A stretch of DNA of 64,000 nt, from positions 64,628 to 128,627 of the IMG/VR virus record IMGVR_UViG_3300018890_000001; one strand, written 5' to 3'. Positions 8,477 through 29,515 of the stretch are shown in pieces. The notes under the pieces were generated by a model. The model saw only the letters and a program-made list of their open reading frames with translations. It was not told the origin of the DNA and ran no database searches. A program made the translations under genes and the position numbers. Origin of the DNA: a virus. Positions within the stretch are counted from its first letter, which is position 1; each line of letters starts with the position of its first letter.

Positions 8477-9016
8477 TTAACCTATTTCGTGTTTCCGCAT
8501 CATCGCGTTAAATTTTGCTCTGAGCTTCGGCTCACGCTCTTTTAACCATTGGCTGAGTACGTAAAGCTCTTTCTCACTGTCTATCGTGGGTAACACTTCG
8601 TTGCTGTCTGACAGCGAACCAAAAAGCGTTATATCGCAAAACAATACCCAATGTGGGTGCTTTTGAGATTTTAGGGTTTTTCCAGCGATGCGAAACCATT
8701 CTCTGAAACGTTTGTAAAAGTACAGCGCGTTAGCATGGTAATCAACAGGTATACCTGATGACAACCATCCATCAAACTGAAGTAATTCAAGTAGGTGCGA
8801 CGCTTTATCGTCTACAAAATCATATGCGTCACATTCTACATACTTCCAGTCAACAGTTTGACCCTTTTTTCTGGTCGCAATGTAGGCTTTTATTTGAAAG
8901 CATGGGTAGTGTGTAATTTCATCGTATACCATACCGTAAATTATTTTTCCGGTATTTTCAAGTACACCGCCTTCGTGCCACACTGGAACAGATATTGTTT
9001 TTTGTGTAGTAGACAT
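8477..9016 (-). CDS. hypothetical protein, paralog of 9118-9717
   Basis: Shared C-terminus WLKEREPKL..KF..MMRKH / WLKAREPFL..RF..IIQKH; likely start MSTTQK. Confidence 0.7.
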   Translation of the reverse strand: MSTTQKTISVPVWHEGGVLENTGKIIYGMVYDEITHYPCFQIKAYIATRKKGQTVDWKYVECDAYDFVDDKASHLLELLQFDGWLSSGIPVDYHANALYFYKRFREWFRIAGKTLKSQKHPHWVLFCDITLFGSLSDSNEVLPTIDSEKELYVLSQWLKEREPKLRAKFNAMMRKHEIG

Positions 9017-9072
9017 AAAGATTCCGTTAAATGATTGTACTAATTTTATCACGTTGAATATAAATGAACAAT

Positions 9073-9115
9073 AAAAACGGGTGATCTAATATATTAATTC
9101 GATCACCCGTTTTTT
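9073..9115. terminator. HIP1-armed palindrome H3
   Basis: A5-CGGGTGATC...GATCACCCG-T6; loop is the reverse complement of the H4/H5 loop. Confidence 0.85.
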
Positions 9116-9117
9116 AT

Positions 9118-9717
9118 CTAAGCGTTGGTTTGTAAAGGTGGTTCATAACCTTGCTTACGCATTTCTTCTTCAGTGATATATTCGACACCATGTTTTTGTA
9201 TAATTGAATGAAATCTAGACTGAAGAAACGGTTCTCGCGCTTTTAACCAAGCTTCTAGTAACGGTAGTTCGTTTGCACTCGCCATGTCCGGAATTGGTTC
9301 TCCGCCTTCGTACAGTAGAGTATTTCTTGAAAACCGTAACCAATGTTCAGCACGTTCTTTTTTAGAAGCCCGATCTCTGGACCAATTCCTAAACGTTTTG
9401 TAATACCACATCGTATGCTCGATATACATATCAGGCAGTCCGTCTTGTCTCCAGAGGTCGAAATGGATTAAGTCAGCAATTTTCGGTTCGAGACTTAAAA
9501 TCTCTTCGCTCGACACTCCGTGTGGATCTGGCACCCATGACAGTGGATCGTGACAAAGCCGATATTCCGTCCGTCCACGGATGATGAAAAGTGGCAGTGC
9601 ATAAGGATCATTATTGAGGTGCATATAGCGCATCCCAAATTCGATTTTACCACTGTGTCTTGTACCAAAGGTGAAGCCCCGTGTAAAGTTAATTACTTGG
9701 TATTTTGTGATCGTCAT
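9118..9717 (-). CDS. hypothetical protein, paralog of 8477-9016
   Basis: 199 aa; GAGG RBS; paralogy. Confidence 0.75.
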   Translation of the reverse strand: MTITKYQVINFTRGFTFGTRHSGKIEFGMRYMHLNNDPYALPLFIIRGRTEYRLCHDPLSWVPDPHGVSSEEILSLEPKIADLIHFDLWRQDGLPDMYIEHTMWYYKTFRNWSRDRASKKERAEHWLRFSRNTLLYEGGEPIPDMASANELPLLEAWLKAREPFLQSRFHSIIQKHGVEYITEEEMRKQGYEPPLQTNA

Positions 9718-9836
9718 ACAGTACCTCGATTTACTATATTTGATTGTATCATAATTGTTAAAGATTCAAAAGAAAAAGTGTTGTACGTTGATATGTATTG
9801 TTTTAAAATAAAATTATAGTCTATATTGAGGTTCCG

Positions 9837-10421
9837 ATGATTTACTTTACAGGTTTTCAAAACTGGGGAAAACAATTCGGCACATTAGTCAGTATTGCTA
9901 ATAGTGAACCTAAAGGTTTTAAAGGGCATATCGATCGCCTGCATTTTTTTGCACCAGATTGGAAAGATGTGAATCTATGGAAAACCAGTCCTAAAACAGA
10001 CGCGGACTGGGAGCGGTTCGTGGCGATGTATCGCATAGTCTGTCGAGAAAGGTGGCGATCTATAGAACACTGGTTGCAAACCCTAAAACCGGAAGTTGAC
10101 ATGACGCTGCTGTGTTGGGAACGTGAATCGAAGCGTTGTCACAGATCACTTGCTGCGAAGTTCGTCGAAGTTTACCGACCAGACTGTTACGGTGGGCTGG
10201 ATATGCTAAACCCCTACCGTAAACGACAACGACACAATAATGTGGACTACGATATTCAAGTTGTGAGTTGCCCTTGGTGTGACGGGTTCGCCTACGAAAT
10301 CTCGGTTGGTGTTGGTATCGGTAAGATTGGCGACGATCCAGATTATCCATATTTGAGGGGCGTCTATGCTCTGCCGGAGTATGCGATTGAGGCGGCAGTT
10401 CTGTTTGTTAAGGGTGATTAA
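9837..10421 (+). CDS. DUF488-like protein
   Basis: FAPDW, DMTLLCWE...CHRSLAA motif. Confidence 0.7.
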   Translation: MIYFTGFQNWGKQFGTLVSIANSEPKGFKGHIDRLHFFAPDWKDVNLWKTSPKTDADWERFVAMYRIVCRERWRSIEHWLQTLKPEVDMTLLCWERESKRCHRSLAAKFVEVYRPDCYGGLDMLNPYRKRQRHNNVDYDIQVVSCPWCDGFAYEISVGVGIGKIGDDPDYPYLRGVYALPEYAIEAAVLFVKGD

Positions 10422-10436
10422 ATAAGGTAGACAAAC

Positions 10437-10482
10437 AAAAAAGTGGGCGATCGAATTAATATATTCGATCACCCACTTTTTT
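10437..10482. terminator. HIP1-armed palindrome H4
   Basis: A6-GTGGGCGATCGAAT..ATTCGATCACCCAC-T6. Confidence 0.85.
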
Positions 10483-10738
10483 AATTAAACCAAACCCATT
10501 CAACATCTACACAATCTTCACCAAGATTGCGAATCGCATTCCAAGGATAAAACTCTGGTTCTGGAAAATCACCCACGTCAAAACAACCTTCAGCAAAAGA
10601 TAGTTGTTCGCGTTCAAAGAACGCATCAGCAACCGCAATTTCATCGGCATCAAGACCGGAGGCGTCACCGTATACAAAATAATACAGCGCCCACTGCGGT
10701 AGTCTATATTTTTTGGATTCGCGTGTTTGTGTTTCCAC
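10481..10738 (-). CDS. small acidic phage protein
   Basis: LPQWALYYFVYGDASGL motif, Asp/Glu-rich. Confidence 0.65.
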   Translation of the reverse strand: METQTRESKKYRLPQWALYYFVYGDASGLDADEIAVADAFFEREQLSFAEGCFDVGDFPEPEFYPWNAIRNLGEDCVDVEWVWFN

Positions 10739-10795
10739 TATTCTTAAGATTGATTGGATAATTTAATTATATTAAATGACGAATAATAAGTAAAG

Positions 10796-10837
10796 AAAAA
10801 GCGGGCGATCGAATTAATATATTCGATCGCCCGCTTA
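10796..10837. terminator. HIP1-armed palindrome H5
   Basis: A5-GCGGGCGATCGAAT..ATTCGATCGCCCGC-TT. Confidence 0.85.
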
Positions 10838-10840
10838 AAA

Positions 10841-11056
10841 TTAGGAATTTCTACTTTGATGTGTCGATTTTACCTGTATGTCAGGGTAGCCGATTTCACG
10901 CAACTTCTGTTTTATGTAACCTACGTTTGTTGGATGGTACACATAAACCGTACCACTACCACCAACATGATAAGCCCAACGTGTAAGCCACTGAGACACG
11001 GTAGTCTCCAGCAGCCCAGGATCGTTGTATAAATTTCGTAAAGAAGATTTAGGCAT
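10841..11056 (-). CDS. hypothetical protein
   Basis: Own promoter (TAAGAT-N6-GTAGT) and downstream hairpin. Confidence 0.65.
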   Translation of the reverse strand: MPKSSLRNLYNDPGLLETTVSQWLTRWAYHVGGSGTVYVYHPTNVGYIKQKLREIGYPDIQVKSTHQSRNS

Positions 11057-11124
11057 TAGTTTCTTTGATCACTACTATATTATCTTACTACAAAATTAGT
11101 CAAAAGACAAAAGATTACTCAAAC

Positions 11125-11417
11125 AAAAAGCCCTCAATGTTTGGTGTTAATAAACATTGAAGGCTTTGGCTCTACTTGCAAGTCTTGCGACTGCGCGTCT
11201 GCTACACAAAGCTAGCGTGACCACTTTAAACGGCTTGCGTACCTAGTAGATTTAGGCGGATTTGCTCTTTCTTTCACTTGGCTCGCGGGTGTCCGCCGCG
11301 TAGAGTATCTGTTGTTCTGTCTAGCATTCCGACAGAACCGTAAACGACACTTGAATTTTTTCACTTAACTTTGTAAACTGTTTATATCTTTCGATAAAGA
11401 TGGTTAACCTTTTGTAT
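11125..11417 (-). ncRNA. candidate structured non-coding RNA (~290 nt)
   Basis: Consensus promoter upstream, terminator at 11125-11167, several stems, GAAA and GCAA tetraloops on the minus strand, no ORF of 60 aa or more. Confidence 0.55.
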
Positions 11418-11423
11418 ATATTT

Positions 11424-11452
11424 AATATACCAATTTATACTATGTTTGTCAA
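11424..11452 (-). promoter_or_regulatory. sigma70-type promoter TTGACA-N17-TATATT
   Basis: tgtcaa at 11447-11452 and aatata at 11424-11429 on the plus strand. Confidence 0.8.
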
Positions 11453-11500
11453 GCTTTTTACTCCTAAAAAGCAAAATAGGTTAAAGCATATCGCCGCATA

Positions 11501-11725
11501 TCAAATAATTGCGCTTATATAACGAGGTATGCGTTCCAGTGGTCTACTATCACCGCAAACAAAGCTGCCGTTATCGAGAAAACCTTCAAAATAATCTGGT
11601 ACTACGAATTTAGTGATGCGTCCGCGATGAATTACGGTATGACCTTCATGGTAGGTTTCATATTCAAATCGATCGCCCGCAACAAAAAAAGCACTGCGTT
11701 CAGAGTCAAAACTGGTTGGGTTCAT
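11501..11725 (-). CDS. hypothetical protein
   Basis: 74-aa ORF with beta-strand pattern. Confidence 0.5.
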   Translation of the reverse strand: MNPTSFDSERSAFFVAGDRFEYETYHEGHTVIHRGRITKFVVPDYFEGFLDNGSFVCGDSRPLERIPRYISAII

Positions 11726-11934
11726 GGAGGTTTACCTGGAAACTACCCTGCCAAAGTAGCACGATCCAGGTCGAAAATCCCTAAGCTTGACCAGGAAATG
11801 GTCAACAAAATGTTAGCTAATTTGTCTTTTTAAAGCTTGTAGATTAGAATTAAAGCAATAATTCTTTCAAAGATAACCCCAAAAAGGAGTCTCAACGCTT
11901 AACCAAGCGCGGAGGCTCCTTTTTTGATTTATAT

Positions 11935-12882
11935 ATGTCAAAAAACGAATCTGAATCTGCGGGCTTCGCTCCCGAAACTCCGACTGCACCTCAAGTTACC
12001 GGAATCGCTATCGAAGATGTCAAGCTGAATACTGTACCGTTTTCGGAACTCGGGGAGAACTTACCGACCGGAGTATTCCACGAAGGTGAGCGACTGCATT
12101 CTTACACGCTTGCGCCGTTCACCGGTGATCTTGAAGTACAGCTCGAAGAACTCTTCAACTCGAAAAAACAGGGTGTAGACAAGGTGTATTCAACCTTGCG
12201 CCACTTTTTGCCAAATGCCATCCGCGATATTGGCGGCATTCCCCTGCATAAACTCGACACAGATCCGCGACGCCTGATCGACCGCATGGACTTAGGCGAC
12301 GTGTTTTCTGTGGTGCTCAGTCTCCGCTGCAACTACCACGGGAAAGGCGATATCGCAATTAGCGGTCAGTGTCCGAACTGCAATACCAAAAATGCAGATC
12401 AAGGTGATTACAGCCAGCCGTACCATGATCTCGGTACAGTAGATGTCAAGTGTTACCAGCACTTACCGCAGGAACCGCTGTTCGATATCCCGCTGGAAGA
12501 TGGGTTCAGCGTAACCGGCGAACGCATTAGCAAATTAAGGATGCGACCGCTGCGGTTTCACCAGTTGAAGGTGATGGGAGATCCCAATAGCGGTAAATTC
12601 CCAAACTTGAACATGATTTCGGCACTGATGTACTCATTCCCAGAATCGACTTCGTATCGGGAACCTAAAGGCGACTTTTTCGATAAAAATCTGTACGCTC
12701 GGATGATCGGTTCGCCACGCGACAAGAAAACTGTATTCGATGCCTTAGAAAAACTGCAACCAGGTCCAGTCATGTCGATCGACATGGACTGCATCAACTG
12801 TTCCTATCAGTGGAAGGAGGGTATACCGTGGGGACAACTCCCATCCTTTCTATATGGGCCTCTTGCTCCCATTAGATCCTGA
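11935..12882 (+). CDS. baseplate hub assembly chaperone (T4 gp26-like)
   Basis: Two CxxC pairs (CPNC, CINC), GD...V..LR..YHG and a C-terminal IPW...FLY pattern. Confidence 0.6.
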   Translation: MSKNESESAGFAPETPTAPQVTGIAIEDVKLNTVPFSELGENLPTGVFHEGERLHSYTLAPFTGDLEVQLEELFNSKKQGVDKVYSTLRHFLPNAIRDIGGIPLHKLDTDPRRLIDRMDLGDVFSVVLSLRCNYHGKGDIAISGQCPNCNTKNADQGDYSQPYHDLGTVDVKCYQHLPQEPLFDIPLEDGFSVTGERISKLRMRPLRFHQLKVMGDPNSGKFPNLNMISALMYSFPESTSYREPKGDFFDKNLYARMIGSPRDKKTVFDALEKLQPGPVMSIDMDCINCSYQWKEGIPWGQLPSFLYGPLAPIRS

Positions 12883-13078
12883 TAGCGTTCAAATGCAGCG
12901 CCAGTACCGCGAAGATAGTATTTTTTTCCTGTGTACTGGCGAACAAGCCCCATTTAGTTCTCGTGAAGAAGTGCTGCGGATGCCGGTGTCTACGCGAAAC
13001 TATTATGTAAAAAAGCTGGCTGATACTTACGAACGCCAGCGCCAAGAAATGGAAAAAAGTTCTTCAAGGAAGCGCTAA
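12854..13078 (+). CDS. baseplate/tail assembly chaperone (T4 gp51-like)
   Basis: IFFL...EEVLRMPVSTRNYYVKKL motif directly after the gp26-like gene. Confidence 0.55.
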   Translation: MGLLLPLDPDSVQMQRQYREDSIFFLCTGEQAPFSSREEVLRMPVSTRNYYVKKLADTYERQRQEMEKSSSRKR

Positions 13079-13081
13079 TCG

Positions 13082-13528
13082 GTGGCAGCACAACAAATCC
13101 TGGGTATTGTCTCAAAAAACCCCAAAGAGGCGATCGTACACAATATATGGATCGCCATTCTTCCCAAGATAAAACTCTGGCTTGAAGCTTCAGGCAAACA
13201 CAAACAGAAAATCAAGCTCGAACTGATTTTTAAAGTTGAGGAGATGACAACTTTTTCACTACTTTCAGAAGTCAGCCAGCATGACGAATTCAGGGTCGGA
13301 CAATTTGTTGAGATCGATAATATCAACCGACGCTCTGGCGTAGAGCAGCAGAGTTTAACTCAGCGCGTCCTTCATGCAGAGAAGGCAATCAAGCCGATCC
13401 TTTTGGATGCACTTGCTAGTAAGCGATCGCCCAAGCATATCTCGAAAGTGAGGATCGTGATAAGTACCGGAGTCTGTCGCTGGGTCGAAAAGATTTCTGG
13501 GGTCGAAGCTGCGTCAGTTGATAACTGA
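13082..13528 (+). CDS. hypothetical protein
   Basis: 148-aa ORF in operon. Confidence 0.55.
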   Translation: MAAQQILGIVSKNPKEAIVHNIWIAILPKIKLWLEASGKHKQKIKLELIFKVEEMTTFSLLSEVSQHDEFRVGQFVEIDNINRRSGVEQQSLTQRVLHAEKAIKPILLDALASKRSPKHISKVRIVISTGVCRWVEKISGVEAASVDN

Positions 13529-13566
13529 GTAACGCAATACGAATGGTAATTTGAATTTTAGGTTTT

Positions 13567-14193
13567 ATGAGTGATCGGGATGAAAAACTAAAAAAAAATA
13601 ATAGCAAGCTCTCAACAACGCAACTTAGTTTACAGCAACAGCGATTTTGTGAAGAGTACATATTAGATCTCAATGCTGGCGAAGCGTACATTAGGGCTGG
13701 CTATAAAGTTAAGAGTCAACGAAGTGCTAACTCAGCAGCATCACGCCTTTTGGGGAATGTGAACATCCAAAAAGAAGTCGATCGCCTGCGAAAAGAGCGC
13801 GGTAGGGAGACGGCGATCGATTCTAGTCGAGTGCTAGCAGAATTGGGAATAATCGGACTCTCTAATATTCTCGATTACATCAAGTACGAAAACGGAGTTT
13901 ACACCGTAAAACCTTCGAGCGAATGGGAACACCCGCAAGCTGTCGCTGAGTTCAGCACCACGACATTCAAGGGGGAGACCAAGGTATCGTTCAAGCTTCA
14001 CAACAAGATTGAAGCGATTAAAATGCTAGCCACTCACGCCGGATTGCTTAGCGATTTAAACACAGCACTCAACGTTCTGAGGCGTTATGGGTACGAAGTT
14101 GAGGAAACAGAAGAAGGCTTGTTCTGTCGAGACACTTATCTCAGCGATCGCATTCAAATCGAACAAATTTCCGCAGCAGTCGATAATAATTGA
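13567..14193 (+). CDS. terS: terminase small subunit
   Basis: QQRFCEEYILDLNAGEAYIRAGY...ASRLL.NV.I; KLHNKIEA (Terminase_2 family). Confidence 0.9.
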   Translation: MSDRDEKLKKNNSKLSTTQLSLQQQRFCEEYILDLNAGEAYIRAGYKVKSQRSANSAASRLLGNVNIQKEVDRLRKERGRETAIDSSRVLAELGIIGLSNILDYIKYENGVYTVKPSSEWEHPQAVAEFSTTTFKGETKVSFKLHNKIEAIKMLATHAGLLSDLNTALNVLRRYGYEVEETEEGLFCRDTYLSDRIQIEQISAAVDNN

Positions 14194-28426: not shown

Positions 28427-29515
28427 CTATTTCAGCGTTCTGAATATCCAGCGACGGAATAACTCGATCACCACCCGATAGGTTTCTATTCCATCTTTGT
28501 TGATCTTTTCAATCAAGCTACCTGCATGGCACTCCATAGCTGCTTGACAGACTTCGTGAACTTGGTTTGGTTTTCTGTCAATATATCGAGCTAATTGATA
28601 CACGGTACACCCGTCAGGATCGTCCGCTAGTTCAACGAGAACCTCTTGCAGCCTTACGTCCCCAAAAACAATCGGTCTGTTGTACAAGCTTGTAAAATAA
28701 GGTCGGTAATTGTCGTAGAATCTTTCCGATGCAGCTATCTCTTCTACATCGTGAACTGTGATGTGACTTAGAACCTTGTGGTCTTCTTCGACCATCCAGT
28801 TGAATTCGCTAATAATATTGGCGCACACACCGCGCACCAACCAAGGGTGTCCGCTACTCAATTCGTATAGGCGATCGATCGCATCAGAATCGAATTTGTA
28901 TGGTTGCTGATTGCAGTATTCAGCCGTCTCTTCCTTGGTGAAAAATCCCAACCACAATTTGCGACTGGGTTTGAAGTCGAGCGTCGCTTGACCAATATCA
29001 GAGCCGATGTCGTGACTACCGCAAAGCAAGAATGCTAGGCGATCGTGTCTCAGTGTTAAAGCTTCAAGCTGTTTCAAAATTGTCGCCGCTGGAATATTCA
29101 GGAAGGCCTCGTACTGATCGATCGCCAGCAACAATTTGCGATCTGGATGCCTGTCTAGCGCTTGTTCTAGATACTTAACAAATGCTGAATAAGGCTTACT
29201 GCGAAAAATAGCAGTGCCTACCAAGACGACAGCATCCATTTTGTCCAAAGCTAGAGCCAACGCCAGCCAAACATCTTTATCTTCTCTGTCGCCACCGAGA
29301 CACTGTAGGCTAGTATATGCGACATCTATTTGCTGACAATGCTTATCAATATGCCAGAGAACTTCGCTTTTCCCAGTAAACCAATCACCCCAAAACAACA
29401 TTGAGCGTGGTGTACCTGCTGGAATTGTCCAGAGTTTCTCAATCTGCTCAAATGCGTATTTGCGACCGATGAAGTTTGTATTGAGGAATTTTTTCGTAGA
29501 ATCTGAAGGATTCAT
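28427..29515 (-). CDS. STAND-like P-loop ATPase (AAA_16/ATPase_2-like) with winged-helix C-terminus
   Basis: FIGR, GDWFTGKS (Walker A), LLLAIDQYE (Walker B), SGHPWL (GxP). Confidence 0.8.
   Translation of the reverse strand: MNPSDSTKKFLNTNFIGRKYAFEQIEKLWTIPAGTPRSMLFWGDWFTGKSEVLWHIDKHCQQIDVAYTSLQCLGGDREDKDVWLALALALDKMDAVVLVGTAIFRSKPYSAFVKYLEQALDRHPDRKLLLAIDQYEAFLNIPAATILKQLEALTLRHDRLAFLLCGSHDIGSDIGQATLDFKPSRKLWLGFFTKEETAEYCNQQPYKFDSDAIDRLYELSSGHPWLVRGVCANIISEFNWMVEEDHKVLSHITVHDVEEIAASERFYDNYRPYFTSLYNRPIVFGDVRLQEVLVELADDPDGCTVYQLARYIDRKPNQVHEVCQAAMECHAGSLIEKINKDGIETYRVVIELFRRWIFRTLK

Follow-up and report, generated by a model that had tools for sequence, protein, structure and literature searches.

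A phage-encoded structured RNA gene with two predicted pseudoknots, present as single units or as arrays of divergent units

The 64,000-nucleotide (nt) stretch of viral DNA analysed here (the window) corresponds to bases 64628–128627 of IMG/VR record IMGVR_UViG_3300018890_000001, which is 199,763 bp long and rated 100% complete. Its minus strand carries a stand-alone RNA gene with its own promoter and terminator and about 290 nt between them, and this gene belongs to a family of which 17 units were found, on 11 contigs that are phage or phage-like. The family is absent from Rfam 15, and it is new as far as the libraries and the literature that we searched show. A preliminary description of the window had claimed a phage-encoded, independently transcribed structured RNA gene at this position, and that core claim is supported by the homologues, by the compensatory changes among them and by the loss of a reading frame that the window's unit contains.

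An independently transcribed RNA with compensated helices

The gene is bounded by two transcription signals, both of which had been proposed before and both of which we find.

11424–11452, minus strand: sigma-70-type promoter, TTGACA-17-TATATT with a TG extension, 11 of 12 matches
11120–11167, minus strand: intrinsic terminator with a 16-bp stem, a 9-nt loop and a U-tract, from the minimum free energy fold

The promoter is the top promoter-like site within window positions 9000–14000, and the RNA start site is inferred to lie near 11417. All ten close relatives retain, in their arrays, a perfect TTGACA together with a good −10 box, which suggests strong transcription by the host polymerase, probably early in infection. 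A terminator hairpin stands at the equivalent place in every relative, with stem sequences that differ; a simple terminator scan omitted the hairpin in the window because its loop of 9 nt exceeds the scan range of 3–8 nt. The GC content is 0.43–0.51 within the unit and 0.28–0.31 in both flanks, in agreement with the enrichment noted earlier, and the minus-strand RNA folds with −84.8 kcal/mol (z = −5.2), a stability that none of 200 dinucleotide shuffles reaches. The transcribed strand holds only a 50-amino-acid (aa) GTG frame (11364–11212) and a 30-aa TTG frame overlapping the promoter, and the list of open reading frames (ORFs) bears out that none of 60 aa or more lies in the approximately 290 nt. 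Promoter, frame-poor interval, terminator, base composition and fold together confirm the earlier observation.

An AU-rich hairpin, GCUUUUU-N6-AAAAAGC (window 11453–11472, minus strand), abuts the −35 box, and a similar one is found in most relatives. It could be a weak terminator of the 74-aa gene that lies upstream, or an UP-like element, and the 74-aa mRNA may read through into the RNA.

Comparison of the homologous units provides further insight into the nature of the transcript. RNAalifold, run on plain MAFFT alignments, returns the same helices with seven units and with 16, and these were named P1, P2, P2a, P3, P4 and P6. For a quantitative assessment we counted changes on 49 pairs in seven helices, including one pseudoknot (PK1), in a MAFFT alignment that was not fitted to any structure (A4), and compared the counts with a control in which the helix partners were slid by 1–3 columns. 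Pairing is seen in 87.9% of cells as against 31–41% in the slid controls, double-sided changes in 19 pairs as against 6–11, and the covariation score is 0.277 as against 0.057–0.113; none of 500 shuffles attains the observed values. In a model-fitted alignment (A8), which also covers the most distant member, the share of paired cells is 96.4% and double-sided changes affect 21 of 31 pairs, as against 4–8 when slid, but this alignment leans towards the model and the MAFFT figures are therefore taken as the fair test.

The reading frame behaves differently. In one unit that is 94% identical to that of the window (L093u2) the 50-codon frame stops after 28 codons, at two other loci (L016 and L015) the transcribed strand has no ORF of 20 aa or more, and the 50-codon GTG frame is thus not conserved. 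Frequent G-U pairs in P1, P4 and P6 are compatible only with the minus-strand transcript. The compensatory helix changes and the strand-specific G-U pairs argue for an RNA, and against both a protein and a duplex DNA element. The preliminary description had set codon-type substitutions in homologues against compensatory ones as the deciding comparison; in the homologues the frame is absent or truncated and the helices are held by compensatory changes, an outcome that favours RNA.

The conserved unit is predicted to consist of a core of about 215 nt preceded by a 5′ hairpin. In this model P1 closes a multi-helix junction comprising P2/P2a, P3, P4 and P5, and is followed by P6, while two pseudoknots (PK1 and PK2), supported by covariation, tie the 3′ end back into the core. 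The elements of the window's unit are as follows, from 5′ to 3′ except that paired strands stand together.

11398–11410, minus strand: P0, hairpin opening each unit (AGGN-UGACN-NCCU in relatives), from RNAalifold on alignment A2 and recurring in all array units
11385–11396, minus strand: P0b, optional hairpin UAUC-GAAA-GAUA with a GNRA loop, present in the window, L015 and L013u1, with a related one in L094u3; the other units are without it
11368–11374, minus strand: P1 5′ strand, long-range closing helix, partner 11206–11212
11206–11212, minus strand: P1 3′ strand; double-sided change in four of seven P1 pairs
11352–11358, minus strand: J1/2, AAAUUCA, nearly invariant A4 columns
11346–11351, minus strand: P2 5′ strand, partner 11304–11309
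11304–11309, minus strand: P2 3′ strand; 100% of P2 cells paired, with one pair CG in 9 and UA in 8 units
11314–11338, minus strand: P2a hairpin, whose stem is subtype-specific and always pairs; its loop UGCUA (11322–11326) is the PK2 5′ strand
11282–11303, minus strand: P3 hairpin with the 7-nt loop CGGACAN; double-sided changes in five of seven pairs, 99% of cells paired
11267–11281, minus strand: J3/4, CYAAGUGAAAGAAAG, the best-conserved single-stranded stretch, with invariant or near-invariant A4 columns
11241–11257, minus strand: P4 hairpin, whose loop UCUAC (11246–11250) is the PK1 5′ strand; double-sided changes in four of five pairs
11212–11240, minus strand: P5, variable hairpin whose stem differs per subtype, and J5/1 (UUAAAG...ACGCUAG), which subtype C does not have
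11200–11204, minus strand: PK2 3′ strand, UAGCA, pairing with the P2a loop just 3′ of P1
11178–11196, minus strand: P6 hairpin, with a GNRA loop in most units; 96% of cells paired, double-sided changes in four pairs
11171–11175, minus strand: PK1 3′ strand, GUAGA, pairing the P4 loop with the 3′ tail

Approximately 74 of the 216 or so positions are invariant or nearly so, and conservation is strongest in the junction strands AAAUUCA and CYAAGUGAAAGAAAG and in the P3 loop CGGACAN. The P2a stem, P5, P0b and an insertion after P1 are variable among the units or present intermittently.

Individual helices illustrate how the pairing is kept. One P1 pair is AU in 7 units and GC in 6, one P3 pair is GC in 9, AU in 6 and GU in 2, and one P4 pair is UA in 7, CG in 6 and AU in 3. 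In the most distant member (L097) P1 is a perfect 10-bp helix whose sequence is fully replaced (AUCCGAAGUU/AACUUCGGAU). Both pseudoknots vary in the same manner: PK2 is UGCUA/UAGCA in most units, AUGUCG/CGACAU in subtype B and GUGUU/AACAC in L097, with double-sided changes in two of four pairs in the MAFFT alignment, and PK1 is UCUAC/GUAGA in most units, CUUAC/GUAAG in L013u1 and L097, and GUUUAC/GUAAAC in L015.

Most of the pairings suggested from the window alone are thus found in the homologues, namely GTTCTGTC/GACAGAAC (P2a), CGCGG/CCGCG (P3) and AGTC-GCAA-GACT (P6), while the long-range pairing TCTACT/AGTAGA corresponds to PK1. The TATC-GAAA-GATA stem is a real hairpin, although an optional one that only some members possess. 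A further suggested pairing, GGCGGA/TCCGCC, does not hold, as it has no double-sided change and its central pair is broken in 8 of 16 units; changes in this region are compensated inside P4 instead. An extension of P1 that would pair GUUU with UAGC is doubtful, since PK2 accounts better for UAGC.

Distribution, arrays and genomic setting

A blastn search of 50,697 phage records gave only a chance AT-rich match over the promoter. As no public phage record matched, relatives were sought through neighbouring proteins, and their contigs were reached via homologues of a 315-aa protein and of the upstream 74-aa protein. In these contigs the RNA is found by blastn at 67–93% identity. A covariance model built from 16 units (R1) recovers those 16 on 10 contigs with scores of 156–233 bits, and adds one distant member at 75.6 bits (E = 5e-17), L097, located at G081:C27:138279-138482.

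The contig that holds this distant member (G081:C27, 188.6 kb) belongs to a cyanobacterial metagenome-assembled genome, yet it is phage-like and, judged from its gene content, appears to behave like a related phage. Ten proteins near the RNA have no Pfam family, and two gp26-like homologues (31% identical), at 136481–137290 and 142261–143115, flank the RNA, one of them adjoining it divergently as in the window. Just upstream of the distant unit there is a stretch of about 120 nt (L097:1340-1460, plus strand) with GNRA-capped hairpins (GGCGAAAGCC, GGAAUAGGCAACAUUCC), which could represent either a leader or another structured element with no relation to the unit.

Other searches returned little. 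Searched with R1, the phage's own genome yields no further copy, and no copy was found in two more distant relatives that carry the 315-aa gene (L017 and L020). Two patterns scanned in IMG/VR gave either nothing or only a remnant in a related phage (G001, described below). The 18-mer GAGCYAAGTGAAAGAAAG occurs at 68 loci among viral, metagenome and genome contigs, where the true members are on two already-known contigs only; a gapped pattern gave one match, inside a 1225-aa ORF, and a pattern widened to the distant member gave none. A 21-bit model match in L026 was rejected as its P3 and P6 are unpaired. Among cyanobacterial genomes, 151 from the order of G081 and 144 from one family, R1 has no match beyond the phage-like G081:C27; since only 15–16 candidates per genome were scored, this means that the RNA was not found in those searched. 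With the same limit, by which absence from hosts is weakly shown, the RNA would not seem to be a copy of a host RNA. The literature that we searched contains no description of it.

A complete relative of 188 kb (G001), whose gp26-like protein is 90% identical to that of the window, has a deletion of about 520 bp relative to window 11170–11700 (L002:3560-4001). This takes away two thirds of the 74-aa gene, and of the RNA only P6 and the terminator are left. In the remnant the P6 loop has changed from GCAA to GCGA and is still of GNRA type. This deletion, the two distant relatives in which the RNA was not found, and its position among small cassettes mark the RNA gene as accessory and dispensable.

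The family also varies in copy number, with one to three units per locus and always one promoter and one terminator. Units are 206–243 nt long with 0–20 nt between neighbours, and single-unit loci are as frequent as arrays. Clustering of the units by identity gave three subtypes and four singletons.

One unit: window, L016, L015, L090, L092
Two units: L011, L013, L091, L093
At least three units: L094, where the array ends at the contig end
Subtype A: window, L093u2, L016, L091u2, L094u2
Subtype B: L011u1, L093u1, L094u1
Subtype C: L090, L092, L091u1, L094u3
Singletons: L015, L013u1, L013u2, L011u2

Array compositions are A, C, B-A, C-A, B-A-C, B-singleton and singleton-singleton. A subtype is never repeated within an array and the units of one array are 54–78% identical, so that the units may have diverged in function.

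The usual neighbour of the RNA is a small gene immediately upstream.

11501–11725, minus strand: conserved 74-aa gene, possibly SH3-like, upstream of the RNA

Its protein has ten homologues, 47–81% identical to that of the window and with many invariant residues, and a whole-library profile search confines the family to this phage lineage. The gene adjoins the RNA in 9 of 11 contigs and is mostly removed together with it in G001, as described above; no contig was seen to carry the gene without the RNA, although two contigs with the gene are too short to tell. A model from the ESM Atlas (predicted template modelling score 0.67) has small SH3-like barrels as its structure neighbours, and we treat a possible SH3-like fold as a lead only. 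TACTTT, 6 nt and GTAGT precede the 74-aa gene (window 11725–11800, minus strand), while the RNA promoter is a canonical TTGACA/TATATT, and with these different start signals the timing of the two may differ.

The other neighbouring genes on this side are small minus-strand cassettes, which include genes of DUF6926 and DUF488. Every cassette has a promoter-like site and a terminator of its own, so the promoter-unit-terminator layout that the RNA had been said to share with adjacent protein cassettes is indeed found there. Divergently, on the other side, lie the gene for the 315-aa protein and then that for the small terminase, about 2 kb from the RNA locus. The 315-aa protein (window 11935–12882, plus strand) has a zinc ribbon; its structure model (predicted local distance difference test, pLDDT, 76.5) matches T4 gp26-like baseplate hub assembly proteins in BFVD (E down to 1e-11, template modelling score about 0.6) and has no Foldseek match in the PDB. 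By its modelled fold, then, this protein is a T4 gp26-like baseplate hub assembly protein. With accessory cassettes on one side and virion genes on the other, the RNA stands at the border of a virion block and an accessory block.

The terminators of neighbouring cassettes (window 10799–10836 and 10436–10483, minus strand) are long palindromes with HIP1-like GATCGCCC arms and a common AT-rich centre; HIP1-type GCGATCGC palindromes at such places presumably point to a cyanobacterial host. NCBI holds a related protein from a 'Richelia sp.' metagenome-assembled genome. We take the phage to be one that infects filamentous cyanobacteria. Among possible partner enzymes, neither Ro/TROVE nor RtcB was found in the phage. 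A 362-aa ORF (window 28427–29515, minus strand) was considered as a reverse transcriptase, but its Pfam matches are all sub-threshold (DUF5575_C, AAA_16, and RVT_1 at 14.8 bits) and the assignment is not credible.

Possible modes of action

The phages have different genes 3′ of the terminator (71 aa, 191 aa, DUF6926, 69 aa and 230 aa). A further promoter-like site stands behind the terminator in the window and at least in L090 and L093, and in L097 the next genes are convergent. These observations argue against a leader acting in cis. The invariant knotted core suggests a specific molecular surface rather than a simple antisense seed, and a locus that is accessory, varies in copy number and has diverged units is reminiscent of loci under host-specific selection. 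We therefore tentatively prefer, among several readings and at somewhat less than even confidence, a trans-acting protein-binding RNA, which would either work together with the 74-aa protein or divert a host factor as a decoy. In this model, host RNA polymerase would make the RNA early and abundantly, and the RNA would act in trans as a folded protein-binding molecule with the invariant knotted core as its binding surface. It might form an RNA-protein particle with the small, possibly SH3-like 74-aa protein encoded upstream, or might serve as a decoy or sponge tying up a host RNA-binding or RNA-cutting factor; in either case the non-identical units of an array could widen or multiply the binding capacity.

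Several observations weigh against this proposal. For the 74-aa protein Pfam, PHROG and PDB give no match, its ten family members have no Pfam match at E ≤ 10, and its AlphaFold2 (AF2) model is poor (pLDDT 55.7). The L015 locus keeps the RNA beside a mere remnant of the 74-aa gene, and a search of G081 with the window's 74-aa protein did not find the gene. The absence of the RNA from hosts is weakly shown, for the reason of candidate numbers given above, and the heterotypic arrays may merely reflect recombinational loss of identical direct repeats. Finally, the invariant junction and the two pseudoknots would be equally at home in a ribozyme or a small-molecule pocket.

A bolder possibility, and a rather doubtful one, is that the family represents a new class of phage counter-defence RNA, made abundantly and with non-identical tandem units that would each capture their own variant of a host immune protein or a nucleotide signal, or else a ribozyme whose new self-cleaving fold would release the units. 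If true, it would constitute an RNA-based anti-defence mechanism or a catalytic fold without a described counterpart. Ornate RNAs that combine pseudoknots with invariant junctions have mostly proved to be ribozymes, ligand sensors or the cores of RNA-protein machines, and phages are known to have few of these classes. As the family is well defined, with 17 members, a two-pseudoknot model, a promoter, a terminator, a candidate partner and sister phages that differ in it, direct tests are possible.

Taken separately, a self-cleaving or otherwise catalytic RNA seems unlikely. The junction and pseudoknots would form an active site and the units of an array would cut themselves free as unit-length RNAs. 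This would account for the compact double-pseudoknot fold with so large an invariant fraction, and since units lie 0–20 nt apart under a single promoter some processing is plausible. Against this, neither the known self-cleaving classes nor any other known ribozyme family gives a model match in Rfam at E ≤ 10, no conserved candidate cleavage site is evident where units meet, loci with a single unit are no rarer than arrays, and host RNases could do the processing.

Less probable again is a free-standing aptamer, in which the units soak up a small molecule such as a nucleotide immunity signal or a metabolite. The combination of invariant core and variable periphery is that of riboswitch aptamers, and, as with other accessory phage genes, the locus can be lost and differs between phages. 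With no expression platform and no regulated gene, ligand binding would have to act by sequestration. However, no riboswitch class matches, the core exceeds most aptamers in size, no particular ligand is indicated, and we know of no RNA sponge for a small molecule in phages.

We consider it improbable, and slightly more so, that the RNA is a base-pairing small RNA whose J3/4 (AAGUGAAAGAAAG) or J1/2 (AAAUUCA) strand pairs with phage or host mRNAs. J3/4 does offer 15 nearly invariant nucleotides that are unpaired in the model, and the complement of the J1/2–P2 word occurs four more times in the genome against a mean of 0.8 for permuted words. However, the four sites have no common context and their number equals the maximum among permuted words, the longest complementarity in the phage genome is 14 nt and AT-rich, and the target search gave nothing above chance. 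Moreover, to carry a seed an RNA needs nothing nearly so elaborate as more than 200 nt and two pseudoknots, and purine-rich junctions usually make tertiary contacts.

Control in cis, by a riboswitch or attenuator governing terminator read-through into the downstream gene, is very unlikely. Only 3 nt separate the PK1 3′ strand from the terminator stem behind it, which is the usual place of an expression platform, and some riboswitches are known to have tandem aptamers in front of a single terminator, but the downstream gene varies and has its own promoter-like site where the sequence was read, the L097 neighbours are convergent, and no antiterminator alternative is seen. A small protein read from the 50-codon GTG or another short frame, or a DNA element such as a pac site or an origin, is largely refuted and scarcely credible, since despite the presence of that frame in the window and of the small terminase gene about 2 kb away, the frame is absent or truncated in homologues and the helices show compensatory changes and strand-specific G-U pairs.

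Comparison with known RNAs

None of the 4227 models of Rfam 15 matches anywhere in the window at gathering scores. At E ≤ 10 none matches the RNA body in the window, L094, L097 or L001, where the only overlaps are weak chance matches to the terminator hairpin and one 12-bit match to GEBRO. ARAGORN finds no transfer RNA (tRNA) or transfer-messenger RNA (tmRNA) gene in the window. The earlier statement that the RNA matches no tRNA, tmRNA, 6S RNA or group II intron therefore stands. 6S RNA is a long imperfect duplex with an open-promoter-like bubble, whereas here a multi-helix junction with two pseudoknots is supported, and group I and group II introns interrupt genes, whereas this RNA is intergenic with its own promoter and terminator; neither class is matched in Rfam. 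Riboswitches and other cis leaders differ as well, as the RNA ends at a terminator of its own with a separate promoter-like site behind it, and the downstream genes vary and, in L097, converge.

A double-pseudoknot core with invariant junction nucleotides recalls the glmS and hepatitis delta virus (HDV) ribozymes, both of which have double-pseudoknot cores, although the order of helices differs and there is no sequence or model match. The RNA resembles the phi29 packaging RNA (pRNA) in being a phage-encoded structured RNA near morphogenesis and packaging genes. However, the pRNA model is among those in Rfam that fail to match, the adjacent gene is gp26-like and encodes neither a portal nor a packaging ATPase, and the RNA is dispensable in a complete relative.

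In layout the closest systems are the type III toxin-antitoxin loci (ToxIN, CptIN, TenpIN) and the phage 'pseudo-ToxI' decoy, in which tandem RNA units under one promoter and with a terminator adjoin a protein gene. The loci described here likewise have tandem units, one promoter and one terminator, an adjacent protein gene and a copy number that varies between related phages, and by analogy the RNA plausibly acts through protein binding. Unit size, unit identity and gene partners nevertheless differ. Type III units are about 34–45 nt and near-identical, whereas these are 206–243 nt, 54–78% identical within an array, and each predicted to be double-pseudoknotted. The type III toxin, an endoribonuclease, is encoded immediately downstream, whereas the downstream genes here are unrelated between phages and convergent in L097, and the protein neighbour is a 74-aa product encoded upstream with no similarity to ToxN-type RNases.

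Closest in spirit are the orphan phage RNAs DUF2693-FD, ROOL and GOLLD. DUF2693-FD (Rfam RF02926) is an orphan phage RNA motif that follows small SH3-like genes and is sometimes tandem, and the present RNA similarly lies directly behind a small, possibly SH3-like phage gene; RF02926 nonetheless has no match to the RNA at E ≤ 10, nor does WYL_2 match any of the ten members of the 74-aa family at that threshold. ROOL and GOLLD are 500–800 nt single units of other architectures, without a match here, where the units are smaller and arrayed, but with them the family shares its character of stand-alone, phage-borne, elaborately folded RNAs supported by covariation.

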